64,000 nucleotides of DNA from Escherichia phage UPEC03: sequence record MW250785; one strand, 5' to 3'. Below are positions 5,106 through 44,705 of this stretch, in pieces (positions within the stretch are counted from its first letter, which is position 1; each line of letters begins with the position of its first letter). The notes under the pieces were generated by a model, which had not been told where the DNA came from, did no database searches, and worked only from the letters and a program-made list of their open reading frames with translations. A program made the position numbers and the translations under genes.

Positions 5106-5150
5106 AGTCAAGGGGGCTGAAAAGCCCCCATAAATAATCCGAGGTTAAAA

Positions 5151-5636
5151 ATGCTTACTGACATTTTACGCGCCTTTGAATCCGGTGATTTCGCACGTCC
5201 GAACCTGTTCGAAGTAGAGATCCCGTATCTGGGCAAAAACTTTAAATTCAAGTGTAAAGCGGCAACCATGCCAGCGGCTACAGTTGAAAAAGTTCCGGTA
5301 GGATACCAAAACCGCAAAATCAACGTTGCTGGTGACCGTACCTATGATGACTGGACAATCACGATCTATAACGATGACGCGCATAATACGCGTGACGCTC
5401 TGGTAGCATGGTCAAACATGATGCACGGAATGGGCGATCAGATTAGTGGTGATATTCCAGCGAACTACAAAAAAACCGCTACGGTGAAACAGAAAAACCG
5501 TAACGATGAAATTACCGCCGATCACACCATCCACGGGCTGTTCCCTACTAACGTAGGCGAAGTTACCCTGGACTGGGATTCGAATAATGAAGTGTCAACC
5601 TTTGAGGTTACTTTCGCTCTGGACTGGTGGGAATAA
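5151..5636 (+). CDS. 19: Tail tube protein gp19
   Basis: 161 aa; RAFESGDFARPNLFEVEIPYLG and C-terminal DWDSNNEVSTFEVTFALDWWE match T4 gp19. Confidence 0.95.
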   Translation: MLTDILRAFESGDFARPNLFEVEIPYLGKNFKFKCKAATMPAATVEKVPVGYQNRKINVAGDRTYDDWTITIYNDDAHNTRDALVAWSNMMHGMGDQISGDIPANYKKTATVKQKNRNDEITADHTIHGLFPTNVGEVTLDWDSNNEVSTFEVTFALDWWE

Positions 5637-5640
5637 AGGC

Positions 5641-5648
5641 TATAAATA
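5641..5648 (+). promoter_or_regulatory. T4-type late promoter TATAAATA (gene 20)
   Basis: Exact TATAAATA ~40 nt upstream of gene 20 start, followed by a short hairpin. Confidence 0.6.
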
Positions 5649-5689
5649 CAGGGGTAGCAATACCCCTATCATTATTTTTCGGAGTTACT

Positions 5690-7264
5690 ATGAACTTTTT
5701 GGGCTTTGGCAATGTACTTAGCTTTTTCAAGAATTTCGCCCGTGAGGACGAATTAGATCTTGAACAGCAATTAAAAAATGATACAGGTTCGGTCGCGCCT
5801 CCTAAAAATAATGATGGTGCTTATGAAATCGAAACTGATCTGACTAATCAGAAATACGCAAGCGTATTCCAGCAGTTTTATTCTGGACAAGATCCGGCGA
5901 TTCAGAACAAAGAACAATTAATTAATACATATCGCGGCATCATGTCTTACCCAGAAGTTGAGAACGCTGTTTCTGAAATTATTGACGATGCGATCGTGAA
6001 TGAACAGGGCAAAGATATCATTACTTTGGATCTTGCCAAAACAGATTTTAGTAAGGCGATTCAAGACAAAATCGTAGAAGAATTTGATAACGTTCTAAAT
6101 ATCTATGATTTTGATAACATGGGTGCGCGTCTGTTCCGTGATTGGTATGTGGATTCCCGTATCTACTTCCATAAAATCATGCATAAAGACGAAAGCAAAG
6201 GTATCCGCGAACTGCGTCAACTTGATCCGCGTTCGATGGAACTGATCCGCGAATCTATCACTGAAACCCTTGATGGTGGCGTGAAAGTATTCCGTGGTTA
6301 TCGCGAATTTTTCGTGTATAGCGCTCCTAAAAATGGCTATACATACAACGGGCAGATCTACCAGCATAACCAGAAGGTTAAAATCCCGCGCTCCGCTATC
6401 GTGTATGCGCATTCTGGCCTGGAAGATTGCAGTAACAACATTATCGGATATCTGCACCGCGCAGTCAAGCCAGCAAACCAATTGCGTTTACTGGAAGATG
6501 CGATGGTCATCTACCGTATCACCCGCGCACCTGAACGCCGTGTGTTCTACATCGATGTAGGTCAGATGGGTGGCAACAAAGCGACACAGTACGTAAATAA
6601 CATCGCACAGGGGCTTAAAAACCGCGTTGTGTACGATGCTAAAACGGGTACTGTTAAGAACCAGCAAAACAACCTGTCAATGACAGAAGATTACTGGTTA
6701 ATGCGTCGTGACGGTAAAGCTATCACCGAAGTAGACACGCTTCCAGGCGGTGCTAACTTCTCTGATATGGATGATATCAAATGGTTTAACCGTAAGCTCT
6801 ATGAAGCACTGCGTGTGCCATTAAGCCGTATGCCTCGCGATGATGGGGGTATGCAAATTGGTGGTGGTGGCGAAATCACCCGTGATGAACTGAAATTCAG
6901 TAAGTTTATCCGCACACTGCAAATTCAGTTCAGCCCTGTGCTTTCCGATCCGTTAAAAACTAACCTGATCGCGAAAAAAATCATCACAGAGGAAGAATGG
7001 GAAGAAAACGTTAGCAAAATTTCCTTCATTTTCCAGCAGGATTCATATTACGCGGAAATGAAAGATATTGAGATTATGGAACGTCGCCTAACGTTAATGT
7101 CACAGGTTGAAGGTGTAGTTGGGAAATATGTCTCCCATAAATACATCATGAAAGAGATTCTTCGAATGTCTGATGAAGACATTGACGAACAAGCGAAGCT
7201 GATCGAAGAAGAATCCAAAGAAGAACGGTTCAAAAATCCCGAAGAGGAAGAGGAAAACTTTTGA
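5690..7264 (+). CDS. 20: Portal vertex protein gp20
   Basis: Strong similarity to T4 gp20 (IGYLHRAVKPANQLRLLEDA, MTEDYWLMRRDGKAITEVDTLPG); start chosen at ATG with GGAG RBS (track ORF begins upstream at 5627). Confidence 0.93.
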   Translation: MNFLGFGNVLSFFKNFAREDELDLEQQLKNDTGSVAPPKNNDGAYEIETDLTNQKYASVFQQFYSGQDPAIQNKEQLINTYRGIMSYPEVENAVSEIIDDAIVNEQGKDIITLDLAKTDFSKAIQDKIVEEFDNVLNIYDFDNMGARLFRDWYVDSRIYFHKIMHKDESKGIRELRQLDPRSMELIRESITETLDGGVKVFRGYREFFVYSAPKNGYTYNGQIYQHNQKVKIPRSAIVYAHSGLEDCSNNIIGYLHRAVKPANQLRLLEDAMVIYRITRAPERRVFYIDVGQMGGNKATQYVNNIAQGLKNRVVYDAKTGTVKNQQNNLSMTEDYWLMRRDGKAITEVDTLPGGANFSDMDDIKWFNRKLYEALRVPLSRMPRDDGGMQIGGGGEITRDELKFSKFIRTLQIQFSPVLSDPLKTNLIAKKIITEEEWEENVSKISFIFQQDSYYAEMKDIEIMERRLTLMSQVEGVVGKYVSHKYIMKEILRMSDEDIDEQAKLIEEESKEERFKNPEEEEENF

Positions 7265-7518
7265 TGAAAGAATTTATCGAAGCAATCAAAAGCGGTGATC
7301 TGGTGGAAGCGAAGAAACAATTCTATTCCATCATGGAAGACCGTACCGAAGCCCTTCGCCAAGAAATGCGCGTTGAACTCGCGGAAGCTGTACGTATCGA
7401 AGGTGAAACCGACGAAGACGACAACGATGACGATGACGACGACAAAGGCGGCGATGATAAAGGCGACGACAAAGACAAAAAGCCGTCTGATAAAAAAGAC
7501 GACGATAAAGACGAATAA
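7264..7518 (+). CDS. 67: Prohead core protein gp67 (acidic)
   Basis: Small ORF between 20 and 68; N-terminus MKEFIEAIKSGDLVEAKK similar to T4 gp67, acidic Asp/Glu-rich tail. Confidence 0.8.
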   Translation: MKEFIEAIKSGDLVEAKKQFYSIMEDRTEALRQEMRVELAEAVRIEGETDEDDNDDDDDDKGGDDKGDDKDKKPSDKKDDDKDE

Positions 7519-7530
7519 GAGGTGTAAATA

Positions 7531-7938
7531 ATGCAACTCGAACTCGAAGAAATCAGCGTCGAAGATCTCGAACCCCATTTAACCGAAGCGAAAGCCCGTG
7601 TTGATGTTCTGGGGATCGATGACGGCACTGTGAAGATCATCGAAAATTTGGCGGTCAATGAACCTCATTTAGCCCTGGCTATGATGTCCATTGTCGAGGG
7701 TTTGAGTTTAGATGAAGTCATTGTTAAACACGTAGATTCACGCGGTAATGTGGAACGTAAAAAAGACCGCAAAACCCGTGAACGTAATGCGTATCAAACA
7801 ACTGGTTTAACTAAATCTCAACGTCGCCAAATTGCGCGTCGTGCGCTAAAAACAAAACGTGCAAACCCTTCTATTACAACCCGCGCACAGCGTAAGCGTA
7901 AAAAAGCGCTCCGTAAACGCGCCGCATTAGGGCTATAA
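7531..7938 (+). CDS. 68: Prohead core protein gp68
   Basis: 135 aa ORF in conserved position between 67 and 21, basic C-terminus; RBS AAGAGG. Confidence 0.75.
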   Translation: MQLELEEISVEDLEPHLTEAKARVDVLGIDDGTVKIIENLAVNEPHLALAMMSIVEGLSLDEVIVKHVDSRGNVERKKDRKTRERNAYQTTGLTKSQRRQIARRALKTKRANPSITTRAQRKRKKALRKRAALGL

Positions 7939-7940
7939 AT

Positions 7941-8600
7941 ATGAATGAATCCCAACTCAATGAAAACGGCGATATGCTGCTAATCGAGGAATGGGGTTTA
8001 CCTTGTGCGGATATTTCCGATTCAATTTTAGAATCGGTCGGTGAGTCGAAAAAAGACGGTAAACTTCGGATTGAAGGTATTTTCCTCCAAGCCGAAAAAG
8101 TTAACCGCAATAAGCGACTGTATCCGAAAAAAGTATTAGAAGAAGCAGTAAACGATTATATCAGAACTCAGGTTAATACCCGTCAAGCTCTGGGTGAAAT
8201 GAATCACCCGCCGCGACCGAATGTCGATCCGCGTAATGCTTGCATCCTAATTGAAAAATTATGGTGGAAAGGTAATGACGTTTGGGGTCGCGCTGTTGTT
8301 GTCGAAGGTGATAACGGTGATGGGGATAAACTCGCGGCGTTAATTCGCGCAGGTTGGGTTCCAGGTGTTTCTTCTCGCGGACTGGGTAAACTTTCCGATT
8401 CTGGAAAAGGTTACGGTATCGTACAAGAAGGGTTTAAATTGGCAGTAGGCGTTGATGTTGTTTGGGGGCCAAGCGCTCCAGATGCTTACGTTAAGCCGAT
8501 TACCGAATCTCAGTCAAGCAAAACGCTTGTTGAGAATAATAGTGCTGATGATGACGCTTTCAGAAAACTCTCTGAACGTTTGAAAAGTCTATATAAATAA
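7941..8600 (+). CDS. 21: Prohead core scaffold/protease gp21
   Basis: 219 aa; RLYPKKVLEEAVNDYI, GEMNHPPRPNVDP, WWKGNDVWGRA, GWVPGVSSRGLG match T4 gp21. Confidence 0.95.
   Translation: MNESQLNENGDMLLIEEWGLPCADISDSILESVGESKKDGKLRIEGIFLQAEKVNRNKRLYPKKVLEEAVNDYIRTQVNTRQALGEMNHPPRPNVDPRNACILIEKLWWKGNDVWGRAVVVEGDNGDGDKLAALIRAGWVPGVSSRGLGKLSDSGKGYGIVQEGFKLAVGVDVVWGPSAPDAYVKPITESQSSKTLVENNSADDDAFRKLSERLKSLYK
8592..8599 (+). promoter_or_regulatory. T4-type late promoter TATAAATA (gene 22)
   Basis: Exact TATAAATA ~28 nt upstream of gene 22. Confidence 0.6.
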
Positions 8601-8626
8601 TATCATATCAAACAGGAAACTTAGAA

Positions 8627-9421
8627 ATGCTTAAAGAACAACTGTTGGCAGAAGCCCAGAACCTGGATACCCCAGTTGAGTTAGACAGCATTTTCGAATC
8701 AGTTGAACTTTCTGATGATGCGAAAGCAAACTTCACCACTGTATTCGAACAAGCTGTAAAAGCAGGTGCTGCGAAACTCGCTGAAACCCACATCGCCCAG
8801 ATCGCGGAACGCTCCGATGAACTGGTTGAAGCCCAGGTTGCCGAAAAAGCTGGCGAAATCGAAAATAAACTGTACGAAGATGCGAATAAATACTTCGACC
8901 ACATCGCGCAGGAATGGCTCTCTGAAAACAAAGAAGCTGTGTCCCGTGATATCAAGGCCGATCTGTTCGAATCTCTGGTAATGGGAATGAAAGAACTGTT
9001 CGTTGAACACAACGTAGTTATCCCAGAAGCGCAGGTTGATGTTGTTGCAGAACTCGAAGATGAACTGACCGAGAATCAGCAGGAAGTTAAACGCCTGTTC
9101 GAAGCTAATCAGGCTCAGGCTAAAGAGATCGCCAACATGAAACGCGATACCATCGTTTCAGAAAAAACAAAAGATCTGACTGAATCGCAAATTGAAAAGG
9201 TTCAGAACCTGATCGAAGGTTTGGAATATTCCGACAAGTTCGAATCCAAACTTACCGCAATCGTTGAAATGGTAGCGACTAAAGCGGAAAAACAGGTTGA
9301 AGAGAGTACCACTACTCAGACAACCACTAAAGATGACTTTGTTCCGGTGAATGAAAATACACCTCCAGCAGAGAAATCGAAGATCAATAAATATGTACAA
9401 GCGGCTAAAGCCCTTTCCTAA
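8627..9421 (+). CDS. 22: Prohead core scaffolding protein gp22
   Basis: 264 aa acidic coiled-coil protein in conserved position; TATAAATA late promoter upstream. Confidence 0.85.
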   Translation: MLKEQLLAEAQNLDTPVELDSIFESVELSDDAKANFTTVFEQAVKAGAAKLAETHIAQIAERSDELVEAQVAEKAGEIENKLYEDANKYFDHIAQEWLSENKEAVSRDIKADLFESLVMGMKELFVEHNVVIPEAQVDVVAELEDELTENQQEVKRLFEANQAQAKEIANMKRDTIVSEKTKDLTESQIEKVQNLIEGLEYSDKFESKLTAIVEMVATKAEKQVEESTTTQTTTKDDFVPVNENTPPAEKSKINKYVQAAKALS

Positions 9422-9440
9422 TCTTATAAGGTAAGAAACA

Positions 9441-11015
9441 ATGTCTAAGAAAAACGAATTGATGGAAAAATGGAACGATCTTCTGGAATCTCAGGAAGGT
9501 TTACCGGATATCGCTACCAAATCCAAAAAACAACTGGTTGCAGCAATTCTGGAAACTCAGGAAAAGGATGCTGATACTGATCCAGTATATCGCGACGAAA
9601 AAATCATTGAATCCTTCGGCGGTTTCCTGGCGGAAGCAGAGATCGCGGGTGATCACGGTTACGACGCAACCAACATTGCCTCTGGTAAATCCAGCGGTGC
9701 AATCACCAACATCGGCCCTGCTGTAATCGGTATGGTTCGCCGTGCGATTCCTAACCTGATCGCATTCGACATTTGCGGTGTTCAGCCTATGACTGGCCCT
9801 ACTGGTCAGGTGTTCGCACTCCGTGCTGTATACGGTAAAGATCCTCTGGCTGGCGGTACTCCTGCAAACGTTCGTGAAGCATTCCATCCGATGTTCGCTC
9901 CAGACACCATGTATTCTGGTGAAGGTGCAAACACCGCGTTTGCTGCTATCGCTTCCGGTACTGCTATCGCTTCCGGCGCTATCGTTAAGCACGTATTCCA
10001 GGAAACTGGTATCGCGTACTTCCAGAACGTAACCTCCGGCAACGTAACCGTAACTGGTGCTGATGCTGCTGCTCTGGATGCTGCTGTAATCGCAGAAAAC
10101 GAGAAAGGCACTCTGGCTGAAATTTCCGAAGGTATGGCTACCAGCGTAGCAGAACTCCAGGAAAACTTCAACGGTTCCAGCGCTAACCCGTGGAACGAAA
10201 TGGCTTTCCGTATCGACAAACAGGTTATCGAAGCCCGTAGCCGTCAACTGAAAGCACAGTATTCCGTTGAACTGGCGCAGGATCTTCGCGCTGTACACGG
10301 TATGGACGCTGACGCCGAACTGTCTGCAATCCTGGCAACTGAAATCATGCTGGAAATCAACCGCGAAATCGTTGACCTGATCAACTACACCGCGCAGATT
10401 GGTAAGACTGGTTTCACTCAGACCGTTGGCTCTAAAGCTGGTGCGTTTGACTTCCAAGATCCAGTAGATATTCGCGGCGCTCGTTGGGCTGGTGAAAGCT
10501 ATAAAGCTCTGCTGATTCAGATCGACAAAGAAGCGAACGAAATCGCGCGTCAAACTGGTCGTGGTGCTGGTAACTTCATCATCGCTTCCCGTAACGTGGT
10601 TTCCGCTCTGGCTCGTATCGACAGCGGCATCACTCCGGCAGGTCAGGGTCTCCAGAAAACTCTGAACGTAGACACCACTAAAGCGGTATTCGCTGGTGTA
10701 CTGGGTGGCACTTACAAAGTGTACATCGACCAGTACGCTCGCCAGGATTACTTCACCGTGGGCTACAAGGGTGATAACGAAATGGATGCTGGTATCTACT
10801 ACGCTCCATACGTTGCGCTGACTCCGCTGCGTGGTTCTGATCCTAAGAACTTCCAGCCAGTAATGGGCTTCAAAACTCGTTACGGTATCGGTATCAACCC
10901 GTTTGCGAACTCTCGCTCTCAGGCTCCGGCAGATCGTATCACCTCTGGTATGATCAGCAAAGAAATGTGCGGTAAAAACGCATACTTCCGCCGCGTGTGG
11001 GTTAAGGGCTTATAA
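9441..11015 (+). CDS. 23: Major capsid protein gp23
   Basis: 524 aa; extensive identity to recalled T4 gp23 (GPAVIGMVRRAIPNLIAFDICGVQPM, YYAPYVALTPLRGSDPKNFQPVMGFKTRYGIGINPFA). Confidence 0.97.
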   Translation: MSKKNELMEKWNDLLESQEGLPDIATKSKKQLVAAILETQEKDADTDPVYRDEKIIESFGGFLAEAEIAGDHGYDATNIASGKSSGAITNIGPAVIGMVRRAIPNLIAFDICGVQPMTGPTGQVFALRAVYGKDPLAGGTPANVREAFHPMFAPDTMYSGEGANTAFAAIASGTAIASGAIVKHVFQETGIAYFQNVTSGNVTVTGADAAALDAAVIAENEKGTLAEISEGMATSVAELQENFNGSSANPWNEMAFRIDKQVIEARSRQLKAQYSVELAQDLRAVHGMDADAELSAILATEIMLEINREIVDLINYTAQIGKTGFTQTVGSKAGAFDFQDPVDIRGARWAGESYKALLIQIDKEANEIARQTGRGAGNFIIASRNVVSALARIDSGITPAGQGLQKTLNVDTTKAVFAGVLGGTYKVYIDQYARQDYFTVGYKGDNEMDAGIYYAPYVALTPLRGSDPKNFQPVMGFKTRYGIGINPFANSRSQAPADRITSGMISKEMCGKNAYFRRVWVKGL

Positions 11016-11040
11016 GTTGTTGAAAAACAACGACTTTTTA

Positions 11041-11068
11041 AAGGGAACCTTCGGGTTCCCTTTTTGTT
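11041..11068 (+). terminator. Intrinsic terminator after gene 23
   Basis: aaagggaacc-ttcg-ggttcccttt hairpin followed by T-run. Confidence 0.8.
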
Positions 11069-11070
11069 TA

Positions 11071-11078
11071 TATAAATA
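11071..11078 (+). promoter_or_regulatory. T4-type late promoter TATAAATA (upstream of GIY-YIG gene)
   Basis: Exact TATAAATA directly after gene 23 terminator. Confidence 0.55.
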
Positions 11079-11101
11079 ATGAAAACTATTGAGGCTATAT
11101 T

Positions 11102-11737
11102 ATGAAACATATAATTTATAAAATAACAAACAAGATAAACGATAGAATCTATATCGGCGCACATTCGACAGATGATATTAACGATTCATACATGGGTTCT
11201 GGTAAAGCAATCAAAGCGGCTCAACGGAAATATGGAATTGAGAACTTCGTAAAAGAGATCTTGTTCGTGTTTGATACAAGCGAAGAGATGTATGAAAAGG
11301 AAAGGGAGATTGTAAACCTAGATTTCGTCAATCGTCCAGATGTGTACAATATGGGCGTGGGTGGTTCTGGTGGCCCTATGCTGGGAATGTTTCATTCAGA
11401 AGAAAAGAAACATGAAATCTCCAAAAGAACTCGTGAAAGAATGACACCAGAAGTAAAAGAACGCCTTTCAAAAATAAAAACAGGAAAGAAACAATCGGAA
11501 GAATCCAACAGGAAGCGTTCAGAGACTATCAAAGCTATGTACAAGGGTTCTGCATTCGACAGAACCGGATCTAAGCTCACAGACGCACACAAGGCCAAAA
11601 TAAGCCGTTCTGTGTCGATAGATGGAGTTGTTTACGCAAGCGGTTCCGATGCTTCTAAAGCGTTGGGGCTTTCTCGATCTGGCCTTGATTACCGTTTAAA
11701 GAGTGACAAATTTCCTGAATGGAAATTCGTTGCATAA
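11102..11737 (+). CDS. GIY-YIG homing endonuclease (seg-like)
   Basis: N-terminal YKITNKINDRIYIGAHS…MGSGK GIY-YIG motif; AT-rich; sits between genes 23 and 24 where T4 carries segD; TATAAATA late promoter upstream. Confidence 0.8.
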   Translation: MKHIIYKITNKINDRIYIGAHSTDDINDSYMGSGKAIKAAQRKYGIENFVKEILFVFDTSEEMYEKEREIVNLDFVNRPDVYNMGVGGSGGPMLGMFHSEEKKHEISKRTRERMTPEVKERLSKIKTGKKQSEESNRKRSETIKAMYKGSAFDRTGSKLTDAHKAKISRSVSIDGVVYASGSDASKALGLSRSGLDYRLKSDKFPEWKFVA

Positions 11738-11775
11738 ATAAACAATATACTCCCTATAATTCAGGAACCAAAGAA

Positions 11776-13074
11776 ATGAGTGATAAACACTACACAATTC
11801 ACAAGTTGATGCGTCAGTCTGCGCTTCCGTCTGGTAAACGAGAAAAAGTTATCAACGAAGCAACAGGCACGACCGACATCAACGTACAGAACACGCGCCC
11901 AGAACTGGTTTCTTTGACTCGCGCGGTTAACAACCTGATCTATCATGAACTGGTTGCTGTACAAGAAACAGAACTCCCTGTTGCAACACTGTTCGGTGTT
12001 CGCTATCGCAACCCTAACGGTGATATGACTTTCTCCAGTGCTGCAACCTATTCAGGCCGAATCTCTGGACGTACAGACATCGACGAAATCGATCTGACTA
12101 AAGCCTACGTTAAAGGTGATTTGTTCAAGCATGACGGCACTGACGTTGTTTATGAGGTTATCGAACCGATTACCCTGAACACTCTGGATACTGACAAAGA
12201 CACCGCGATCATGAAAGCTGTGTTCCAAAGCAAAATTCGACTGGTGAGTGAAGCCGCTGACACTTCTAAGTATGAAACCAGCGAAGATATCGCGTCAACC
12301 TCCTTCCAGATGGATCGCTGGAATATTCCGGTACGTTCGCGTAAGTTTAAAACCGAAATGACGGTTGAACTGATGCAGGATTTGGAAGCGAACCAGTTCG
12401 AAGCTGATGGGGTGATCGAAGACATCCTGGGAACCGTGGCAAGTGAAGAAGTCAACAAAGACATTATTCAAACACTGATCACCGTTTCCAAACGTTACAA
12501 CGTTGATGGACTCGTTACGGATGGTATTTTTGACGGTACTACCGCATACACCGCGAAGGATGCTCCAGCATTGGGTCGTATCCTGTATCAATTAGCGTGT
12601 GAAATGGGGCAGGAAATGAATAGAACGACTTCATTTGATGCTACCTACGTCCTCGCAACAGCGCGTGTTGTAGGCATTCTGGCTGCGTCTGGTTGGATGC
12701 ACGAAACCGACGAACAACACCCACTGGCAACAGGTAAGCTGAACAACGGTTATTATGTCTATACAGACACAACCAGTCCGTTCGATTATATGCTGACTGG
12801 CTGCAAATATGATCTGGGTGATATGGATCACGTAGGCTCTCTGTTCTTTGCTCCGTATACCGAAGCTGACGAAGCAGGTTCAATCAAAGTATCCGTAGAT
12901 CCGGCATCCCTGCAACCAAAAGTTGCTATTCTGATGCGTTACGGTCTTTCCGTGAACCCGTACACAGCAGAAAGCGAATCCGATCACCTGATCAAAGGTG
13001 ATGATTGGTCTGCTCTTGCAGGTAAATCTAAGCTGAGTCAGATCGTAGGTATTAAGTTACCTAAACTGGGTTAA
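11776..13074 (+). CDS. 24: Capsid vertex protein gp24
   Basis: gp23-paralog pattern (NLIYHELVAVQET, SRKFKTEMTVELMQDLEAN, ILAASGW, PYTAESE) matching T4 gp24; start at ATG (MSDKHY) within track ORF 11719. Confidence 0.9.
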   Translation: MSDKHYTIHKLMRQSALPSGKREKVINEATGTTDINVQNTRPELVSLTRAVNNLIYHELVAVQETELPVATLFGVRYRNPNGDMTFSSAATYSGRISGRTDIDEIDLTKAYVKGDLFKHDGTDVVYEVIEPITLNTLDTDKDTAIMKAVFQSKIRLVSEAADTSKYETSEDIASTSFQMDRWNIPVRSRKFKTEMTVELMQDLEANQFEADGVIEDILGTVASEEVNKDIIQTLITVSKRYNVDGLVTDGIFDGTTAYTAKDAPALGRILYQLACEMGQEMNRTTSFDATYVLATARVVGILAASGWMHETDEQHPLATGKLNNGYYVYTDTTSPFDYMLTGCKYDLGDMDHVGSLFFAPYTEADEAGSIKVSVDPASLQPKVAILMRYGLSVNPYTAESESDHLIKGDDWSALAGKSKLSQIVGIKLPKLG

Positions 13075-13120
13075 CAAGTTTTGTTTTGAGAAGACCATTA
13101 TAGTAATAAAGATCTATAAG

Positions 13121-13293
13121 GTCAAACGAGCGAAGCGAGTTTTCACGAACGAAGTGAGTGATGGGTAAGTACGATGTACTGTTTATAATATTTATATTTT
13201 ATATATAGAGAAAACAGTACATTTCCGTATACTTTTTAACCAACATTCACTCACTACGTTCGTTCATGTACTCGCTTCGCTCGTAGATTTGAC
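13121..13293. repeat. Long imperfect inverted repeat (~40-bp arms, 15-bp perfect core ACGAGCGAAGCGAGT) with nested 9-bp hairpin
   Basis: Left arm 13121-13160 pairs with right arm 13248-13293 by reverse-complement reading; inner gtactgttt / aaacagtac around an AT-rich loop; flanked by direct repeats TTTGTTTTGAG at 13080-13090 and 13322-13332. Confidence 0.7.
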
Positions 13294-13762: not shown

Positions 13763-13763
13763 A

Positions 13764-16062: not shown

Positions 16063-16132
16063 TATGATTACCCTATGTACAAAGTATATACGTATTTATG
16101 TCATAAATATTGGATAAACACTGGAGATACCA

Positions 16133-17246: not shown

Positions 17247-17819
17247 ATGACTGAATTAAATCACGAATGCCTGAAAGACTTATCAGAAGGTAAAGAGATC
17301 GGAAACGTCATCTTCCTTGATATCGACGGCGTTCTAAATAATATGCGGTGCATGAAATTTGGTGAGCATATGGACATTGAATGTGCTCGACACCTGCGCC
17401 GGATCGTAAATCATGCGAACTGTGATATTGTCATTTCCTCTACATGGAGGATCGGCAACACAACCCATACTCTACGGGAAATCTTCTATCCGTGGGGATT
17501 GTATCGCATCATTGGGAAAACCTGTACGAATCTAACAGACCGACAAGCAGGACGCGGTGATGAAATCAAAGCATGGATCGACACCTTCGGATGTAAGAAT
17601 TACCTTATCCTTGATGACGATACCGATATGCTGCCGGAACAGAGTGAACATTTCATCAATACCGATGGGTTCGTAGGGCTGACAGAAGAACAATCCACTT
17701 ACGCGATCCGTAATGTGTTCGGTGTAACAAACCCGTTCTGTCCTGAATGCAACGGCTATGGGCGCGTGAACCAATATGATAAATGTCCGTCTTGTGACGG
17801 CAAAATTTTACTTCTCTAA
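17247..17819 (+). CDS. HAD-superfamily phosphatase-like protein with C-terminal CxxCxGxG zinc ribbon
   Basis: FLDIDGVLNN (HAD motif I), ILDDD; C-terminal CPECNGYGR…CPSCDGK. Confidence 0.55.
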   Translation: MTELNHECLKDLSEGKEIGNVIFLDIDGVLNNMRCMKFGEHMDIECARHLRRIVNHANCDIVISSTWRIGNTTHTLREIFYPWGLYRIIGKTCTNLTDRQAGRGDEIKAWIDTFGCKNYLILDDDTDMLPEQSEHFINTDGFVGLTEEQSTYAIRNVFGVTNPFCPECNGYGRVNQYDKCPSCDGKILLL

Positions 17820-17846
17820 ATAGAGAAAAACTAAGAGGTTTTGAAA

Positions 17847-19419: not shown

Positions 19420-20253
19420 TCAACCCCATGTATCAGTTTTCGGTGCGTATGCTGCAACTTTAGCCACTAACTCTTTATCAAGCTGATCAATGGATTTCTG
19501 CGGCTTGCCTTTTGCCTTAACTTTTATGTAGTTAGACTTAACAACAAACATACCGCCTTTGTCAGATTTCTTGATTTCGCTGTCAATGCCTACTTTGTTG
19601 AAACTGATCCAGATATCGCCGTCCATGTACTGTTTCAGAGAGTCGCCCATATTCAGGATCTTCGCCATAGTGAGCGCTGCCCCTTCGTGGGTATCCATGA
19701 GGATTTCTTTAGGCACAACACGATCGCGTTTAAGGTTCTGTTGCATCGCAATATGAACATCGTTCATAACCCAAACGATATGGATGTTTTCTTTCTGATA
19801 ACCCAGCGCTTCAACATCACGGGCGATACTTGCCAGCTTGCTCATGCTTTTTAGGGTTACGTCAAAGATCAGGTTTGGTTTACGGTCTTCCGGTGCTGCT
19901 GCGATACCCGCGTACACACGCGCCTGGTTTTTGTTGGATACGTTGAACACGTCTGCGATCACATGATGCAGTGTTGCTACGTTGTCCGGGTTTTTCAGGT
20001 TCATTGTTTTGACATCGTGACCAGTTTTCGCTTTGATCTCTGCTGCCAGTTTGGTACTACCCATGACCAATTTTTTGAGTGCGTCAACGTCCAGGGTGAT
20101 CCCTTCGATACCTAACAGCTTTTCGAGGGTGAACCCTTTACCAGAACCCGCACCGCCAGCCAGGATGACTACCTGACCAAATTTAGGATAAGCCTTACCG
20201 CCGAAGGTGATCAGCGCTTCATCAAGGCTCGTAAAGTCTTTGAATGATTTCAT
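19420..20253 (-). CDS. P-loop kinase-like protein (Walker A GGAGSGKG)
   Basis: 277 aa; VVILAGGAGSGKGF P-loop near N-terminus; family not resolved (does not resemble recalled T4 dNMP kinase gp1). Confidence 0.55.
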   Translation of the reverse strand: MKSFKDFTSLDEALITFGGKAYPKFGQVVILAGGAGSGKGFTLEKLLGIEGITLDVDALKKLVMGSTKLAAEIKAKTGHDVKTMNLKNPDNVATLHHVIADVFNVSNKNQARVYAGIAAAPEDRKPNLIFDVTLKSMSKLASIARDVEALGYQKENIHIVWVMNDVHIAMQQNLKRDRVVPKEILMDTHEGAALTMAKILNMGDSLKQYMDGDIWISFNKVGIDSEIKKSDKGGMFVVKSNYIKVKAKGKPQKSIDQLDKELVAKVAAYAPKTDTWG

Positions 20254-20287
20254 CTTAGAACTCCATGTGTTTATTTAAAAGTATTTA

Positions 20288-20316
20288 TTGACACGGTTTA
20301 TGAGTGTGTTTATAGT
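20288..20316 (+). promoter_or_regulatory. Sigma70-like early promoter TTGACA-N17-TATAGT
   Basis: Consensus -35/-10; spacer contains TTATGAGTGTG, shared with the promoter at 24651. Confidence 0.6.
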
Positions 20317-28879: not shown

Positions 28880-29149
28880 ATGTTTAAAATTTATGGCTAT
28901 ATCCCTTCTGTGTATAACTGCGCTCCGTGCCTGAACTCAAAGCGCTTGCTGGACGCGAAAAAACATCCGTATGAGTTCGTGTCTGTTGCGGATTCCGTGG
29001 AAGACGGTAAACCTGTACTGAACGAAGCGGTGATCGATGAACTCGAAGCGCTTGTTGGTACGCGCCGGATGACCATGCCTCAGATTTTCCATGACGGGAA
29101 ACATGTAGGCGGGTTCGACCAACTTCGTGAGTACGTCCGCACCCTGTAA
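28880..29149 (+). CDS. nrdC: Glutaredoxin NrdC
   Basis: MFKIYGY…CAPC…MPQIFHDGKHVGGFDQLREY matches T4 NrdC thioredoxin. Confidence 0.9.
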   Translation: MFKIYGYIPSVYNCAPCLNSKRLLDAKKHPYEFVSVADSVEDGKPVLNEAVIDELEALVGTRRMTMPQIFHDGKHVGGFDQLREYVRTL

Positions 29150-29181
29150 TAAATAATGACACCTTACTGAATGGTGTTATT

Positions 29182-31778: not shown

Positions 31779-31831
31779 GAACACCTAGTATTAGCGCCTT
31801 CAATAAATAAAGAAAAATTGAGGGCGCTAAT

Positions 31832-35602: not shown

Positions 35603-36553
35603 ATGATCCTGAATTTTAAAACCCGTAAAGAAGCCCGTGACTATTGCTGGAAGTGGTCGATTCCGCTGAAAAATATCAACAAACAATCCGCTGGTTCGCA
35701 TCCGTGGACGGTGAGAACAAAAGAAACCCGCTTCGTAAGCGGTAAAGATTATAAACTGATTGATGTCGAAGGTTTCACCGATAACGGCAAAAACGTTGCT
35801 AACCGCATCCAGGCGCAACAGATCAACAAATTCATGAACGGTGTTGTAAGCATCACAAGCCGTGATGGTGATCGCTATACATTCAACGCTCCAGCAGGTG
35901 TTGCTATGAACACCCTTCGTGCATGGGAAGCGAAATACTTCACAGAAGTTATTCCTGGTAAAGCCCCAGCGCCAAAACGCGCTAAAAAGCCAAAACCAGT
36001 AGGCAAACCGTCTGTTGCTCCTGCACCAGCTAAACCGGATCTGGATTCTGAACTGGATGGTGGCGTTAACCTCGCTCCAACAACAGAACCAGTTGCGAAA
36101 CCTGCTGCACCACAGCCAGCGACAGTTGAAGCAATGCCGCATAACTTTGTTGCAAATCGTCCGTATGTTCTGGTAGATGAACTAGGTTTCTTGCGCTCTC
36201 ACACTGCGAACGAACGCATTGTGCAACACATCAAAAACAACAACGGTGTTCTGGTGTTTGACTCGGTTGACGGCGACGGTGACGCGACTATCGAACAAGA
36301 TCGTAGCCTCCAGTTTGTGATGCATCGTGAGCGTGTATTCTTCCGTGAACTCGGTACTGGTAATCCGGCAAACACTCCATCGGTTCAGACCGTTGATATT
36401 ACCAAACAGCAACGCGATAAAGAGATCATCAAAGCTGCACAGGCAGTAGAAGACGCACTGGCAGAACACCAAACGGCGATCGTAGTTGTTACACAGAAAG
36501 CTCGCGCAGTTCGTGAAGCCGCTGCAAAACTTGCACTGCTGGCACGTAAGTAA
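35603..36553 (+). CDS. Hypothetical protein with Pro/Ala/Lys-rich linker
   Basis: ORF with central low-complexity APAPKRAKKPKPVGKPSVAPAPAKP linker; followed by terminator. Confidence 0.5.
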   Translation: MILNFKTRKEARDYCWKWSIPLKNINKQSAGSHPWTVRTKETRFVSGKDYKLIDVEGFTDNGKNVANRIQAQQINKFMNGVVSITSRDGDRYTFNAPAGVAMNTLRAWEAKYFTEVIPGKAPAPKRAKKPKPVGKPSVAPAPAKPDLDSELDGGVNLAPTTEPVAKPAAPQPATVEAMPHNFVANRPYVLVDELGFLRSHTANERIVQHIKNNNGVLVFDSVDGDGDATIEQDRSLQFVMHRERVFFRELGTGNPANTPSVQTVDITKQQRDKEIIKAAQAVEDALAEHQTAIVVVTQKARAVREAAAKLALLARK

Positions 36554-36561
36554 TATAATTC

Positions 36562-36589: not shown

Positions 36590-36601
36590 TTTGAGGTAAT
36601 C

Positions 36602-37336: not shown

Positions 37337-37574
37337 CTGTTACGGGTGTATACAAGCACAAAAGCTGTTGACAGAAAAAGGGATAGAATATACATTTTAT
37401 CCCGTTCTGAAAGAAGCGAAAAACGATCTGGGCTTTGAATACGATCGCCCACGTATCGAAGAGTTAGCAAAACGGGTAAGGCAACGTAGTTTAGCGTTTC
37501 AATACCCGCGTATTTTTGTCGATAACAAACTTATCGGCGGTTATCTGCAACTGAAACAACTTATTGGTGATTAA
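37296..37574 (+). CDS. Glutaredoxin/thioredoxin-fold protein (CxxC)
   Basis: YGIPESLHNCYGCIQAQKLL…FVDNKLIGGYLQLKQLI resembles NrdC/glutaredoxin layout. Confidence 0.6.
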   Translation: MKVEIYGIPESLHNCYGCIQAQKLLTEKGIEYTFYPVLKEAKNDLGFEYDRPRIEELAKRVRQRSLAFQYPRIFVDNKLIGGYLQLKQLIGD

Positions 37575-37913
37575 ATGAGTCGTGAAATTTTACTCCCTGC
37601 TGCAAATGCTGTTCATGCTGAAACGATGGAATACATGGAGAAATTCGTTGAACGCGATAACACCGCGATCATCACTCCTACTCACCTGGACGCGCTCGAA
37701 GATCGTCTTCATAAGCAGATTAAAGATCAATTCCCTGAAAAGGTTAGCCGCAACTTCATTCGTCAGGAAATCGTTGCAATGATGCTGAAACATTACGGCG
37801 TTGAAATCTTCGGTGTCGAACCACTGAAACCGAAGAAAGCACGTCAAATGCCTAAACAGATCACCGACGAAGCAATCAAGAAATACCAGAAGAAATACGC
37901 TAAGAATAAATGA
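37575..37913 (+). CDS. Hypothetical protein
   Basis: 112 aa ORF. Confidence 0.5.
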   Translation: MSREILLPAANAVHAETMEYMEKFVERDNTAIITPTHLDALEDRLHKQIKDQFPEKVSRNFIRQEIVAMMLKHYGVEIFGVEPLKPKKARQMPKQITDEAIKKYQKKYAKNK

Positions 37914-39337: not shown

Positions 39338-39352
39338 TGGTCGCCTTTTTTG
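39327..39352 (+). terminator. Intrinsic terminator before gene 34 late promoter
   Basis: aggcgac…gtcgcct hairpin + TTTTTT. Confidence 0.75.
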
Positions 39353-39354
39353 TT

Positions 39355-39362
39355 TATAAATA
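39355..39362 (+). promoter_or_regulatory. T4-type late promoter TATAAATA (gene 34)
   Basis: Exact TATAAATA after terminator, ~32 nt upstream of gene 34. Confidence 0.65.
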
Positions 39363-39393
39363 TCAGTATTGAATAAGATAAAGGAAAACGATA

Positions 39394-42300: not shown

Positions 42301-43053
42301 GGAACCAAAAACTTGCTTCGTACCTTCCGTGGTGGTGTGGCGGATACGATCTGGCATGAAACTGTTCAGGCAAGCACGTATCGCCTGGCGACGGGTACAA
42401 CGGATCTGGTTGACGTTCTGACAGTAGGTGATGTCGGTAACGGCACAATGGCGTATTCCGGTACGAACATTCGTCTGAATGGTAAAGCTCTGGCTAACAT
42501 CAACACGGCGGGTGATTTGTTTGTTGCAAGTACAGCAACGCCTACGGTACAATTACGAACCGCTGCAACTAATGGTTGGAACGGTGTAACAATCAGTAAT
42601 GACGGCGGCACAACCACTGCAACCGTGATCAACACCCGAAACTTTACCCAGCATCTTGACAGTACCTATGTCAACGTAGCGGGTGATACTATGACTGGTG
42701 CGCTGTCAGTTAGCGTAAACGGTACGGGTGGACGCTTTACCAGTGTGAGCGGTACGGCACATGTTCAGGCGGGTGATTTCTCTGGGAACGTCCAGAAAAT
42801 GCGCTTAACTGGCATTGACGATAAGGTATTGACTGAGTTCAACATCAATATCACCGATTACAACAAAGCGATGATCAACGGAAACCTGATCTATCATGCA
42901 GGTCGTAAACCGACTCCGGCAGAAATCGGGGCGGTGGCGGTAGCGGGTTCAACCGTCGATACTCTGGTTGTACGTAACTATATCAAAATCGGTAACGTGA
43001 AAATCTTCGCAAACCCAGCAACTAAGACTTGTGAATTTGTGTGGGAGGAATAA
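39394..43053 (+). CDS. 34: Long tail fiber proximal subunit gp34
   Basis: 1219 aa; repeated …ATETRRGIARLATTAEVNQNTT…RRGVLEIATQAETNAGTDDTTAITPKKL… blocks and C-terminal IGAVA…NYIKIGNVKI…FVWEE match T4 gp34; TATAAATA upstream. Confidence 0.93.
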   Translation: MVAKSFRATSGLDAAGEKVINVGKASRSVLSDGVNVDFFNEFNTIQQYDSTRGYAAFMAIMYARRIWYARADIPSPAGAFDETKWISTRNDPKWVYNNVTSNDGLPVESGTYLMADGRFSELTYILPDAPVEGDIITIKDGGGLAGINNLLVRSNTRQIRLRDIQSSSYRLTHPYMTVAFIFNGNLWRVAEMRDNRDSQFVNATGLTAFQMQAGMVTFRNSGTGKITLQLPRYANDGDSITTYDLDRLASVNVATLQVYPGSGHTISYDGINNVPSVTSQRSGYGIFMFDQANNRWVVYDGDQRVRLRRISDDLNMLPNDYVFITPVAGSPPTVRNVTLTLPQDVAEGDRVYISMYMMGKTQNCTIKVKDGSGEKIRTNKNMMQFPQRKDYPPNDWFSVDTLTFNADTDYLPYMELSYLKATKEWVVAQYRPIIERVDPTNRSRLGVIALATQAEVNKNHEDTPSDELAVTPRTLANKTATETRRGIARLATTAEVNQNTTATFLDDVIVTPKKLNERSATEDRRGVLEIATQAETNAGTDDTTAITPKKLDTRRATETLAGIGKLVTTGATTAEGALRGDAGTNVYNFNNGVDLITPKSLNEKTATEKSKGLVVLATENEVVTGAAAGSASMPIVVTPEMLHRKTSTETRIGLIEIATQTETNTGTDDLRAVTPKKLNDRKATESLDGIIALATTAEVAAGTVTNKAVVPVKLKEFFDVTSHVAVATDDGLTQSGTIWTTINLGIASATETQRGTLRVATQGETDAGLLDTVFITPKKLQAKKATDTAEGIIRCATNAEAGAGTATNLAITPATMQFLNGTDPAWGATTTRRGAVFITTQSNTFIGDNLVGSTQAVDDYLEDFYAVSPRGLNFALQNFLPKMATAQNSLSLGGVVAASWMRRDANQTVTGNNTFNGTSNFVGNVTTNGTLTANAAVTVNNTVTTNNNINQSAKANTVYANTVLSGEAAGTKNLLRTFRGGVADTIWHETVQASTYRLATGTTDLVDVLTVGDVGNGTMAYSGTNIRLNGKALANINTAGDLFVASTATPTVQLRTAATNGWNGVTISNDGGTTTATVINTRNFTQHLDSTYVNVAGDTMTGALSVSVNGTGGRFTSVSGTAHVQAGDFSGNVQKMRLTGIDDKVLTEFNINITDYNKAMINGNLIYHAGRKPTPAEIGAVAVAGSTVDTLVVRNYIKIGNVKIFANPATKTCEFVWEE

Positions 43054-43058
43054 TTTAA

Positions 43059-44654
43059 ATGGCGAATAACGAATTTATGGCGTTATTCGGCCCTGATAGT
43101 TTCACGGCGAGTGTGTTTTCAGAAGCAAACGCCGTGAAATATCGCCTTGTTGTCCGTGGAACGAATAACGATTCTGCGGTCAACTCGGTTGAGGTATCTA
43201 TCAATGGGGCTGATATTATTAACCGAAACGTACAGCGCGGTCGAGGGATTAACCTTGCTGTAATTGACGGTACGAGTTTGGCTTTGCTGGATTTCAAAAC
43301 TTTTGATATGTATGGTGATCCTACTACGAATGGGACTGCGATTAGTGATTACCTATCTACACTTCCAGCAAACAGAATTGTATGTTTCTATACGTTCGAT
43401 GCTATAAAATCTACCGATGCGTTTTTGAGTTATATGCGCACAATCGGATCAGTTGCATGGCCTGAAACACGATTCTTTAACACGCCGTCATCATCAACAA
43501 ACAACCCGCACCGTTCATCCTATTCAGCAATCTATTCATCCACGATGAAAAAGATCTGTATGGAAAACTTCGTAGGTGGTTCTGGTACTGGACTCAAAGA
43601 CAACACGACGAGTTTTGTTGAGGTTGTATTCGATGAATTCAGTGATATCGGGGTAACTGGTATTCCTGAAAGAATGGTTGATGATGTTCAGGTATATCAG
43701 AACAGTGGCAGTGCTTACGGCTTCCATTTATATGGGATGTGGGATATTGGTTCTACTGTTTTCTTGGGGGACATCTTTAAGTTCACTGGTGATGTTTATT
43801 GCTCGCAAGAACTTCGCAATGCTGGCGGCGAATGTTATCTCTATATGTGGACACAGAACGCCTCTGGTCAATGGATATCCTCTGCGGTACTGCGAACAAC
43901 TGGGTTAGCTCCTGATGAATGGCATTCTCTGTCAGGATATTTCACTATCCCTACGGACGCGCTAAACGTGAAGATGGGATGTATGGTATATCACTACCCG
44001 TCTACCGTGAAAGTGGGGCTTGCTCAGTGTCGCAATGTCCAGATCAGTAAAGTTCCACGAATCGAAACCGATCGCAACGGGGCGGCAATTGGTGTAAATG
44101 GTATCAGGATGCAAACGCTTTCCGAAGTTGATGATGCTGGAACCCAAAACCCGATTGATAAATTGCTTTCTCTGCCTGTTTCGCCTACTGGGGTTATTAG
44201 TGACAAGAAAATCAGTTCGCATAACTTTGCTGAACTTGATTATATTGTTTCTGATCCGGTTGAATACACTTCGACAAATACAGCGGAGTACCAGTTCAAA
44301 GAATGGACTGCTACCCAGCAAGCGGCGGTAACGAAAGCATCACTAAGCAGTTACGGATTAAAAGCTGGTGATACGATCCGTATGCAATGCCAAATGAAAC
44401 GCGATGCAAATGCGATTGCTAACAATAAAGGCGCATATATTGTAATGCAGTTCTGGGACGCGAATAATACGTATATTTCAGGGATCAACATGCGTGATGT
44501 TGGTACGATCCCGAACGTATATTCATTCTACAAAAACGAAGGGGTTATTCCTGCTGGTGCGGTTACGTTTGATTTCGGTTTATATCGTTATCCAAACAAC
44601 ACAAACATCGGTACGATATCCGCTAAAGACGTTAATTTGTCAATCGTGAGATAA
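43059..44654 (+). CDS. 35: Long tail fiber hinge connector gp35 (enlarged, GG/ILEI-like N-terminal domain)
   Basis: Position between 34 and 36; N-terminal GINLAVIDGTSLALLDFKTFDMYGD pattern resembles the FAM3/ILEI 'GG' fold reported for gp35 proteins; 531 aa vs ~372 in T4. Confidence 0.65.
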   Translation: MANNEFMALFGPDSFTASVFSEANAVKYRLVVRGTNNDSAVNSVEVSINGADIINRNVQRGRGINLAVIDGTSLALLDFKTFDMYGDPTTNGTAISDYLSTLPANRIVCFYTFDAIKSTDAFLSYMRTIGSVAWPETRFFNTPSSSTNNPHRSSYSAIYSSTMKKICMENFVGGSGTGLKDNTTSFVEVVFDEFSDIGVTGIPERMVDDVQVYQNSGSAYGFHLYGMWDIGSTVFLGDIFKFTGDVYCSQELRNAGGECYLYMWTQNASGQWISSAVLRTTGLAPDEWHSLSGYFTIPTDALNVKMGCMVYHYPSTVKVGLAQCRNVQISKVPRIETDRNGAAIGVNGIRMQTLSEVDDAGTQNPIDKLLSLPVSPTGVISDKKISSHNFAELDYIVSDPVEYTSTNTAEYQFKEWTATQQAAVTKASLSSYGLKAGDTIRMQCQMKRDANAIANNKGAYIVMQFWDANNTYISGINMRDVGTIPNVYSFYKNEGVIPAGAVTFDFGLYRYPNNTNIGTISAKDVNLSIVR

Positions 44655-44675
44655 AGGGGCGAAAGCCCCTTTTTC
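44655..44675 (+). terminator. Intrinsic terminator after gene 35
   Basis: aggggc-gaaa-gcccct + TTTT. Confidence 0.7.
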
Positions 44676-44705
44676 ATAAATACAGTCATTACAGGAGAAA
44701 TTTTT

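Follow-up and report, generated by a model that had tools for sequence, protein, structure and literature searches.

Candidate late promoters with cytosine at position -13 in an RB43-like phage

In T4, late genes are transcribed by the host RNA polymerase core together with the sigma-like protein gp55, and gp33 links this polymerase to the gp45 sliding clamp riding on replicating DNA; the polymerase opens the DNA at a short box, and transcription starts ~6 nt downstream of it (PMC2988020, PMC7892883). In the cryo-EM structure of the T4 complex, gp55 flips bases -12, -9 and -8 of the box into protein pockets, and base -13 is not among them. While 32 of the 50 listed T4 late sites are perfect, 9 carry an A at -13 (PMC2988020), and Nolan et al. 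(2006) reported weak conservation of the T at -13 in RB43, RB49, 44RR and others (PMC1524935). Among more distant T4-like lineages, NATAAATA has been proposed as the late-promoter motif of cyanophage S-PM2 (PMC2984593), and the motif of Aeromonas phage Aeh1 is CTAAATA, with C at -12 (PMC1524935). A variable -13 position is already known for T4-like phages and is not special to the phage described here.

The DNA analyzed (the window) is a stretch of 64,000 nucleotides from Escherichia phage UPEC03 (MW250785). This phage is a Pseudotevenvirus of the RB43/RB16/GAP161 group of T4-like phages; GAP161 is 98.5% identical to it over window positions 3000-13000, and gene identities in the window were taken from the GAP161 annotation. 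Genes of relatives were called with a simple ORF caller, and the relative contigs are kin rather than independent samples; one of them, L003, is RB43, and its coordinates agree with the list of Nolan et al. Orthologues of rIIA, rIIB, topoisomerase and ndd, which are early genes in T4, lie in a 13-kb minus-strand block (50.8-64 kb), where no (A/C)TAAATA box was found before any gene.

Like T4 late promoters (TATAAATA, positions -13 to -6), the boxes of the window are 8-bp elements with an exact ATAAATA and no -35 element; they lie on the coding strand, tens of nucleotides before structural genes and often just after a hairpin, and they serve orthologous genes (19, 20, 22, 23, 24, 34, 36, 37 and uvsW). 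The canonical boxes named in the preliminary description (before genes 20, 22, 34 and 37 and the GIY-YIG homing endonuclease gene seg) are all present, and predictions of Nolan et al. for RB43, which belongs to the same genus, coincide with window boxes for genes 20, 22, 23, 34, 37, uvsW and hoc (PMC1524935):

5641-5648, plus strand: canonical TATAAATA before gene 20; matches RB43 Pl:131563
8592-8599, plus strand: canonical TATAAATA before gene 22; matches RB43 Pl:134500
9386-9393, plus strand: AATAAATA, with A at -13, before gene 23 (major capsid protein); matches RB43 Pl:135288
11071-11078, plus strand: canonical TATAAATA after the gene 23 terminator, before seg
39355-39362, plus strand: canonical TATAAATA before gene 34; matches RB43 Pl:165866
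47057-47064, plus strand: canonical TATAAATA before gene 37; matches RB43 Pl:173505

The five canonical boxes end 23-41 nt before the start codon; in T4, TATAAATA is located 27 nt upstream of gene 22.

Five further boxes differ from T4 in having C at -13. They match TATAAATA at 7 of 8 positions, with the ATAAATA core intact and the only mismatch at -13:

5112-5129, plus strand: gene 18 ends in this G+C-rich hairpin (GGGGGCTgaaaAGCCCCC), RNAfold dG -16.1 kcal/mol
5129-5136, plus strand: CATAAATA before gene 19 (tail tube), a putative late promoter; start predicted at ~5142, ATG at 5151
11733-11740, plus strand: CATAAATA before gene 24 (capsid vertex), a putative late promoter; start predicted at ~11746, ATG at 11776
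16093-16100, minus strand: CATAAATA, putative late promoter of uvsW, 30 nt before the GTG at 16062; predicted start ~16087
16102-16109, plus strand: CATAAATA 23 nt before the ATG (16133) of inh (minor head protein), a putative late promoter; start predicted at ~16115
44653-44674, plus strand: gene 35 ends in this hairpin and T run (AAAGGGGCgaaaGCCCCTTTTT), which lie right against the gene 36 box; RNAfold dG -16.5 kcal/mol
44675-44682, plus strand: CATAAATA before gene 36 (tail fibre), a putative late promoter; start predicted at ~44688, ATG at 44706

The boxes of genes 19, 24 and 36 had been proposed in the preliminary description as variants of the late promoter at the expected distance, and both their exact plus-strand positions and their spacing hold: they end 14, 35 and 23 nt, respectively, before the start codon, compared with the 23-41 nt of the canonical boxes. 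The proposal itself finds good support in position, enrichment and the comparison of orthologous sites, but it had missed the uvsW/inh pair, whose boxes stand back to back as the near-palindrome TATTTATGtCATAAATA. A hairpin followed directly by a box is an arrangement common to the gene 19 and gene 36 boxes and to the canonical boxes of seg, 34 and 37; at gene 36, the 5-T run is partly shared with the stem. Nolan et al. describe A or T at -13, from which the C(-13) boxes differ, and their list of 27 RB43 sites contains neither the C(-13) boxes (131074 for gene 19, 171201 for gene 36) nor the CCTAAATA boxes; the boxes of genes 19, 36, inh and 15 are absent from it (PMC1524935). Searching the literature for CATAAATA gave no hits of relevance to phages, and the T4 RefSeq record annotates CDS features only, with no promoters.

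The window holds 8 copies of CATAAATA where 2.59 are expected, a number reached by 0 of 100 dinucleotide shuffles. This window-wide excess alone is not proof of function, because the coding sequence accounts for three of the eight:

2445-2452, plus strand: copy of CATAAATA within gene 17 that spells H-K-Y; taken as incidental
2804-2811, plus strand: copy of CATAAATA within gene 17 that spells I-I-N-N; taken as incidental
7136-7143, plus strand: copy of CATAAATA within gene 20 that spells H-K-Y and lies 120 nt upstream of gene 67; probably incidental

A role as internal promoters was considered for these copies since T4 gene 17 has internal transcription. As internal promoters all three copies were rejected, given their H-K-Y or I-I-N-N codons and the synonymous alternatives found in relatives: relatives with the same residues as at 2445 encode them through CAC AAA TAT and similar codons, and the motif at 7136 is gone wherever the residues change, with no sign of selection beyond coding.

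A test confined to upstream sequence is therefore decisive; in it, the 67-nt stretch before each of 79 gene starts of the window was compared with dinucleotide shuffles. Here CATAAATA was found 5 times against 0.21 expected, a 24-fold enrichment that none of 1000 shuffles reached, and in the upstream stretches of the complete GAP161 genome it was found 7 times against 0.57 expected (0 of 1000 shuffles match). The remaining five window copies lie 14-35 nt before orthologues of T4 late genes (19, 24, 36, uvsW and inh), and in GAP161 five of the seven upstream copies likewise precede such orthologues (15, 19, 24, uvsW and 36). That genes 19, 24, inh, uvsW and 36 are expressed late in the window phage is presumed from their T4 orthologues. 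When promoter position is defined as 5-60 nt upstream of a gene start on the same strand, the count of variants gives 5/8 copies of CATAAATA in the window, the same as for TATAAATA (5/8) and similar to AATAAATA (4/6), compared with 0/2 for GATAAATA and 6/45 for the 21 variants at other box positions, pooled. Among ATAAATA boxes in promoter position, the base at -13 is T, C or A in 5, 5 and 4 cases in the window and in 6, 7 and 5 cases in GAP161, while G is absent; in both phages, unlike in T4, the three bases are about equally frequent.

Comparison of orthologous sites showed that they change at -13 (or -12) only and keep TAAATA. Directly after the hairpin before gene 19, CATAAATA is found in L002, RB43 (L003) and L006, TATAAATA in L004, L005, L009, L071, 44RR and most T-even-type loci, and TCTAAATA in L007, L008, KVP40 and Aeh1. 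The gene 19 box would give a leader of only ~9 nt, and the spacing is equal in the orthologues with T at -13. The uvsW site is CATAAATA in L081, L082 and L087, AATAAATA in L083, L084 (RB43) and L088, and TATAAATA in L085, L086 and L089, so that C, A and T all occur at -13; the RB43 box, with A, is the late promoter Pl:141366 predicted by Nolan et al. The inh site is CCTAAATA in RB43, L083 and L088, TCTAAATA in GAP161, AATAAATA in L087, GCTAAATA in L085 and GATAAATA in L090. For gene 36, CATAAATA is unchanged in all six Pseudotevenvirus contigs compared (L092-L097), in which the hairpin loop differs and gp35 is 71-87% identical; in the more distant L098 the site is TCTAAATA. Beyond the window, CATAAATA precedes genes 13 and 15 in many T-even-type contigs. 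The gene 15 site has A at -13 in T4 (AATAAATA), C in GAP161 and many T-even-type contigs, and C at both -13 and -12 (CCTAAATA) in RB43.

Taken together, the position of the motif, its enrichment upstream of genes, the interchange at orthologous sites and the absence of an overlapping sigma-70-type match make it very probable that the CATAAATA boxes of genes 19, 24, 36, inh and uvsW are T4-type gp55-dependent late promoters with C at -13; initiation at the five sites and its dependence on gp55 are what we infer from these sequence features. The boxes could instead be inactive near-misses or decayed promoters, with genes 19, 24 and 36 served by read-through from the promoters of genes 18, 23/seg and 34, but we consider this unlikely. 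Read-through is plausible in that the genes sit in long same-strand late clusters, and the hairpin before gene 19 lacks a T tail on the plus strand (a terminator-type scan calls the stem on the minus strand only), so it would not be a canonical terminator. Moreover, the RB43-type contigs without seg (L003, L005 and L006) have just TGTAAATA before gene 24, and a strong gene 24 promoter may therefore be dispensable. The relative activities of variant late promoters in vivo are not established even for T4 (PMC2988020), and a literature search found no transcript 5' ends, in vitro transcription or transcription-start data for any Pseudotevenvirus. However, inactive boxes would not explain the 24-fold upstream enrichment, which GATAAATA and most other variants do not show, or the strict retention of ATAAATA while -13 alternates between T, C and A at orthologous sites. 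The invariance of the gene 36 box in six diverged contigs also speaks against decay, and the uvsW box is the sole box of late type between two divergently transcribed genes, both of which read-through could not supply.

It is still less probable that the boxes are kept for reasons other than initiation, the one at 5129 as part of a terminator or RNA-stabilizing hairpin and the one at 11733 as a codon and stop traveling with a mobile gene. The first base of the gene 19 box, C 5129, does pair with G 5112 in the 7-bp stem, and the gene 24 box holds the TAA stop (11735-11737) of seg, positions 11733-11737 being the final codon and stop of that gene; seg ends in an identical CATAAATA box in L002, L004 and L071, one of them Slopekvirus-like. 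Yet such constraints reach no further than the first 1-5 bases in two boxes and leave the boxes at 16093, 16102 and 44675 unaccounted for. The same is true of the contigs L007 and L009, which lack seg and have their own CATAAATA before gene 24, after the gene 23 terminator and with non-homologous flanks; between L071, with seg, and L009, without it, the box is found ~30-35 nt before gene 24 in both, again with non-homologous flanks. Overlap with a hairpin or stop is also compatible with a promoter; in T4 and its relatives, the stop of gene 14 is likewise overlapped by the box of gene 15. That the boxes are -10 elements of early or middle host sigma-70 promoters is hardly credible, for although CATAAATA contains ATAAAT, loosely like TATAAT, and a GAP161 copy at 36325 lies inside the spacer of a TTGACA-type promoter, a window scan found none of the five sites overlapped by a sigma-70-type consensus match, a G+C hairpin fills the -35 region at two of them, each box precedes an orthologue of a T4 late gene, and the early-gene block has no such box before any gene.

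If the boxes are late promoters, gp55 polymerase, acting through gp33 and the gp45 clamp, would open the DNA at the C(-13) boxes, where C replaces T at the upstream edge of the element, and transcripts would start at about 5142, 11746, 16115, 16087 (minus strand) and 44688. Genes 55, 33 and 45 lie outside the window, and GAP161, which is annotated as encoding all three proteins, was used as a proxy for the comparison of gp55. GAP161 gp55 matches T4 gp55 (PDB 7d7c_F) with E = 8e-51; the pocket residues N13, L54, R57, F86 and Y97 are conserved, and two of the seven pocket residues that were alanine-tested in T4 gp55 differ (H95Y and T99N). A weak requirement at -13 is consistent with the T4 structure, in which this base is not flipped into a gp55 pocket. 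Our result agrees with gp55 reading the flipped bases -12, -9 and -8 but not -13, and it leaves the understanding of late transcription unchanged. In the six bases after the box, A or T occupies 3-5 positions for C-boxes and 1-5 for T-boxes, in samples too small to tell the two kinds of box apart.

Further boxes of the window carry A at -13 or C at -12:

17815-17822, plus strand: TCTAAATA, with C at -12, 24 nt before hoc
20282-20289, minus strand: AATAAATA 28 nt before a minus-strand hypothetical gene (19420-20253)
29148-29155, plus strand: AATAAATA 26 nt before gene 49 (endonuclease VII)
31802-31809, plus strand: AATAAATA 22 nt before a SegH-like homing endonuclease gene
50150-50157, plus strand: CCTAAATA 38 nt before the holin gene t (50196)

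The hoc site is TATAAATA in RB43 (Pl:143295 of Nolan et al.), and the holin site is CCTAAATA in GAP161 and GATAAATA in RB43. The suggestion in the preliminary description that gp55 of this phage has a relaxed specificity at position 1 is too narrow in that tolerance at -13 is a family-wide trait and in that -12 varies as well in this genus. What is distinct here is a matter of degree: C is as common as T at -13, and -12 can be C too (hoc, holin). The window has CATAAATA, which agrees with the fully degenerate first position of the S-PM2 motif NATAAATA, as well as TCTAAATA and CCTAAATA, which agree with the CTAAATA of Aeh1. Unlike S-PM2 and Aeh1, each described with one motif type, a single genome here has both A(-12) and C(-12) types, which swap at the orthologous hoc, t, inh and gene 15 sites.

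These comparisons suggest N(A/C)TAAATA as a working consensus for the RB43-like group, with T, C and A about equally frequent as the first base of ATAAATA boxes. For annotation, this means that a strict TATAAATA string or profiles seeded with T4 sites miss a sizeable fraction of RB43-like late promoters; in the window, a strict search would recover 5 of ~16 candidates. Use of N(A/C)TAAATA could give a better transcription map for a group that is widely isolated for therapy against Klebsiella, Enterobacter and Cronobacter. A less probable reading is that gp55 of the RB43 group is truly broader than that of T4, reading N(A/C)TAAATA with C(-13) as good as T and C(-12) tolerated. Which base stands at -13 (T, C or A) and at -12 (A or C) might then tune the strength or timing of late-gene promoters. 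In GAP161, CTAAATA boxes are found before the baseplate genes 3, 53, 6, 7 and 28 as well as hoc, inh and the holin gene, and ATAAATA boxes before head, tail and fibre genes.

The sequence CATAAATA, which carries C at -13 where the canonical late promoter box TATAAATA carries T, was found eight times in the window against 2.59 copies expected (0 of 100 shuffles reached 8); TATAAATA was also found eight times, against 2.3 expected. Five of the eight CATAAATA copies are located 14-35 nt upstream of start codons on the coding strand, and we consider it quite likely that these five sites represent late promoters, with the highest confidence for genes 19, 36, uvsW and inh and lower confidence for gene 24.

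CATAAATA copies in promoter position in the window
5129, coding strand: box of gene 19
11733, coding strand: box of gene 24
16093-16100, minus strand: box of uvsW, absent from the preliminary description
16102, plus strand: box of inh, absent from the preliminary description
44675, coding strand: box of gene 36

The preliminary description had proposed CATAAATA at 5129-5136, 11733-11740 and 44675-44682 as late promoter variants of genes 19, 24 and 36. All three copies are present, the TATAAATA boxes it had assigned to genes 20, 22, 34, 37 and seg (a GIY-YIG homing endonuclease gene) were also assigned correctly, and the promoter reading of CATAAATA, although weaker for gene 24, is well supported in silico and extends from three sites to five, with the inh and uvsW boxes forming a back-to-back pair. 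The other three copies are intragenic (2445, 2804 and 7136), where they encode H-K-Y or I-I-N-N; these were rejected as promoters and represent coding by-products, since relatives that share these residues encode them with synonymous alternatives.

Between positions 3000 and 13000, the window shows 98.5-98.9% identity to Citrobacter phage Citrof4, Klebsiella phage phi1_146002, Cronobacter phage GAP161 and others. GAP161 is classified in the Straboviridae, genus Pseudotevenvirus (the RB43/RB16 "pseudo-T-even" group), and its annotation was transferred to identify the genes of the window, which has a G+C content of approximately 44-46%.

Genes of the window, from the GAP161 annotation
Genes 15-24, with the GIY-YIG homing endonuclease gene seg between genes 23 and 24
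uvsY, uvsW (minus strand), inh and hoc
A nucleotide-metabolism gene block
Tail-fibre genes 34-38 and the holin gene t
rIIB, rIIA and topoisomerase genes, in a minus-strand block; the T4 orthologues are early genes

To quantify enrichment, the 67 nt preceding every one of the 79 gene starts in the window were compared with 1000 dinucleotide-preserving shuffles. CATAAATA was found in these segments 5 times against 0.21 expected (0 of 1000 shuffles reached 5), TATAAATA 5 times against 0.30, AATAAATA, the version with A at -13, 4 times against 0.50, and GATAAATA not at all against 0.27. Promoter position accounted for 5/8 of the T(-13) boxes, 5/8 of the C(-13) boxes and 4/6 of the A(-13) boxes in the window, against a pooled 6/45 for the 21 variants of TATAAATA that differ at positions other than the first; among all single-base variants, only the position-1 T, C and A versions cluster in promoter position. 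The same counting was applied to the complete 178-kb GAP161 genome, assembled from retrieved parts, where five of the seven C-boxes precede genes 15, 19, 24, uvsW and 36.

Boxes upstream of genes in GAP161
CATAAATA: 7 observed, 0.57 expected
TATAAATA: 6 observed, 0.81 expected
AATAAATA: 5 observed, 1.21 expected
GATAAATA: 0 observed, 0.76 expected

No sigma-70-type match was found overlapping any of the five CATAAATA promoter sites, and no (A/C)TAAATA box was found before any gene in the minus-strand block at 50.8-64 kb, which holds orthologues of T4 early genes. Hairpins of approximately -16 kcal/mol adjoin the boxes of genes 19 and 36, as they do the canonical seg, 34 and 37 boxes. The C at 5129 is the final stem base of its hairpin and therefore serves both hairpin and box.

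Orthologous sites were compared in related IMG/VR contigs retrieved with gp19, UvsW and gp35 as queries. The gene 18/19 spacer has the box immediately after a G+C hairpin; the box is CATAAATA in the window, RB43 (L003), L002 and L006, TATAAATA with identical downstream sequence in L004 and L005, TATAAATA also in L009, L071, 44RR and most T-even-type contigs, and TCTAAATA in L007, L008, KVP40 and Aeh1. At the uvsW site, the window shares CATAAATA with L081, L082 and L087; three sequences, RB43 among them, carry AATAAATA, another three carry TATAAATA, and two more distant contigs carry CCTAAATA. The RB43 AATAAATA copy is the late promoter Pl:141366 predicted by Nolan et al. At the inh site, CATAAATA is found in the window, CCTAAATA in RB43, TCTAAATA in GAP161 and AATAAATA, GCTAAATA or GATAAATA in other relatives. 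The gene 36 site is CATAAATA unchanged in six Pseudotevenvirus contigs, in which gp35 is 71-87% identical and the hairpin loops differ, and TCTAAATA in one distant contig.

Gene 24 is the weakest of the five promoter cases. Here the seg stop codon, TAA, lies within the CATAAATA box, an arrangement also found in L002, L004 and L071; the mobile gene therefore appears, through this box, to preserve a promoter before the host gene 24 into whose upstream region it was inserted. L009 and L007, which lack seg, have a CATAAATA of their own downstream of the gene 23 terminator, with flanks non-homologous to the seg-bearing allele, and seg-less RB43-type contigs carry TGTAAATA before gene 24. We also observed that, in the stretch at 11071-11776 running from the gene 23 terminator through seg to gene 24, seg lies between a TATAAATA box, now upstream of seg, and gene 24, and that seg-less relatives have a single box in the gene 23-24 interval.

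The preliminary description had further suggested relaxed gp55 specificity at position 1 in this phage. Tolerance at -13 is supported, but its restriction to this phage was too narrow, as it is general among T4-like phages. In T-even-type contigs, CATAAATA is recurrent before gene 13, downstream of the wac terminator, and before gene 15, where it overlaps the stop codon of gene 14; the gene 15 site is AATAAATA in T4, CATAAATA in GAP161 and CCTAAATA in RB43. Promoter-positioned boxes carry T, A, C and G at -13 in 220, 29, 19 and 6 cases in the gene 13-24 region of 45 T-even-type loci and in 14, 7, 8 and 0 cases in five Pseudotevenvirus loci, both sets of loci being phylogenetically non-independent. 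Among 50 listed T4 late-promoter sites, 32 are perfect, 9 have A(-13) and the remainder mostly show other single deviations (PMC2988020). T(-13) has been reported to be poorly conserved in RB43, RB49, 44RR, KVP40 and S-PM2, with A/T common, and Aeh1 to use CTAAATA (Nolan et al. 2006, PMC1524935); the motif given for S-PM2 is NATAAATA (PMC2984593). While the RB43 list of Nolan et al. matches all T/A(-13) boxes orthologous to those of the window, it is without any C(-13) or CCTAAATA box. The five CATAAATA boxes are new instances of an already known element type; their value lies in annotation and their general interest is low.

T4 late promoters are read at the -13 to -6 element by gp55-RNA polymerase, with activation through gp33 and the gp45 clamp (PMC1524935, PMC2988020). 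Cryo-EM has shown that A(-12), A(-9) and A(-8) are flipped into gp55 pockets and that -13 is not (PMC7892883), in keeping with a loose base requirement at -13. Gene 55 itself falls outside the window; its GAP161 product (L100:31311-31823) matches T4 gp55 (7d7c_F) with E = 8e-51, and 2/7 of the pocket residues that were alanine-substituted in T4 differ (H95 to Y and T99 to N), with N13, L54, R57, F86 and Y97 conserved. H95 and T99 belong to the -9/-8 pockets, yet A(-9) and A(-8) are invariant in the promoters.

The RB43 group seems to make heavier use of -13 tolerance than T4-like phages generally and to tolerate C at -12 as well. In GAP161, 9/15 copies of NCTAAATA are in promoter position, before genes 3, 53, 6, 7, 28, inh, hoc, t and one homing endonuclease gene; genes 3, 53, 6, 7 and 28 are baseplate genes, and the box is of the Aeh1 type. 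Two C(-12) boxes were found in the window:

17815-17822: TCTAAATA, hoc
50150-50157: CCTAAATA, holin gene t

The RB43 counterparts are TATAAATA at hoc (Pl:143295 of Nolan et al.) and GATAAATA at t. The NCTAAATA boxes probably form a second late promoter class that exchanges with ATAAATA boxes at orthologous RB43 sites, and because -12 alternates between A and C at hoc and t (window and GAP161 versus RB43), the putative working consensus for the genus is N(A/C)TAAATA.

TATAAATT, in which the final A is replaced by T, is found at 3091-3098, 15 nt upstream of gene 18 and overlapping the end of gene 17; 3/7 of its GAP161 copies are in promoter position, suggesting that the last box position may also be tolerant. 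An exact TATAAATA at 7934-7941 ends inside the gene 21 ATG and therefore cannot supply full-length gene 21 with a leader. Gene 36 (44706-47028) carries a perfect 91-nt tandem duplication (44798-44979, 2.0 copies, 100% match), found in neither GAP161 nor L092. As its unit length of 91 is not divisible by 3, the reading frame is broken into two ORFs, one of 62 codons (44706-44894) and another at 44884-47028. This duplication is either an assembly artefact or real, inactivating or altering the tail-fibre protein gp36. Finally, the gene 24-uvsY intergenic region at 13126-13284 contains nested inverted repeats with arms of 15 nt (100% complementary), 17 nt (94%) and 23 nt (78%) around an A+T-rich centre with TATAAATA on the minus strand (13189-13196) and TATATATA. 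Approximately 60 nt of this centre are found, nearly identical, twice in GAP161, downstream of gene 24 and beside gene 3, and the region has the appearance of a palindromic intergenic repeat.
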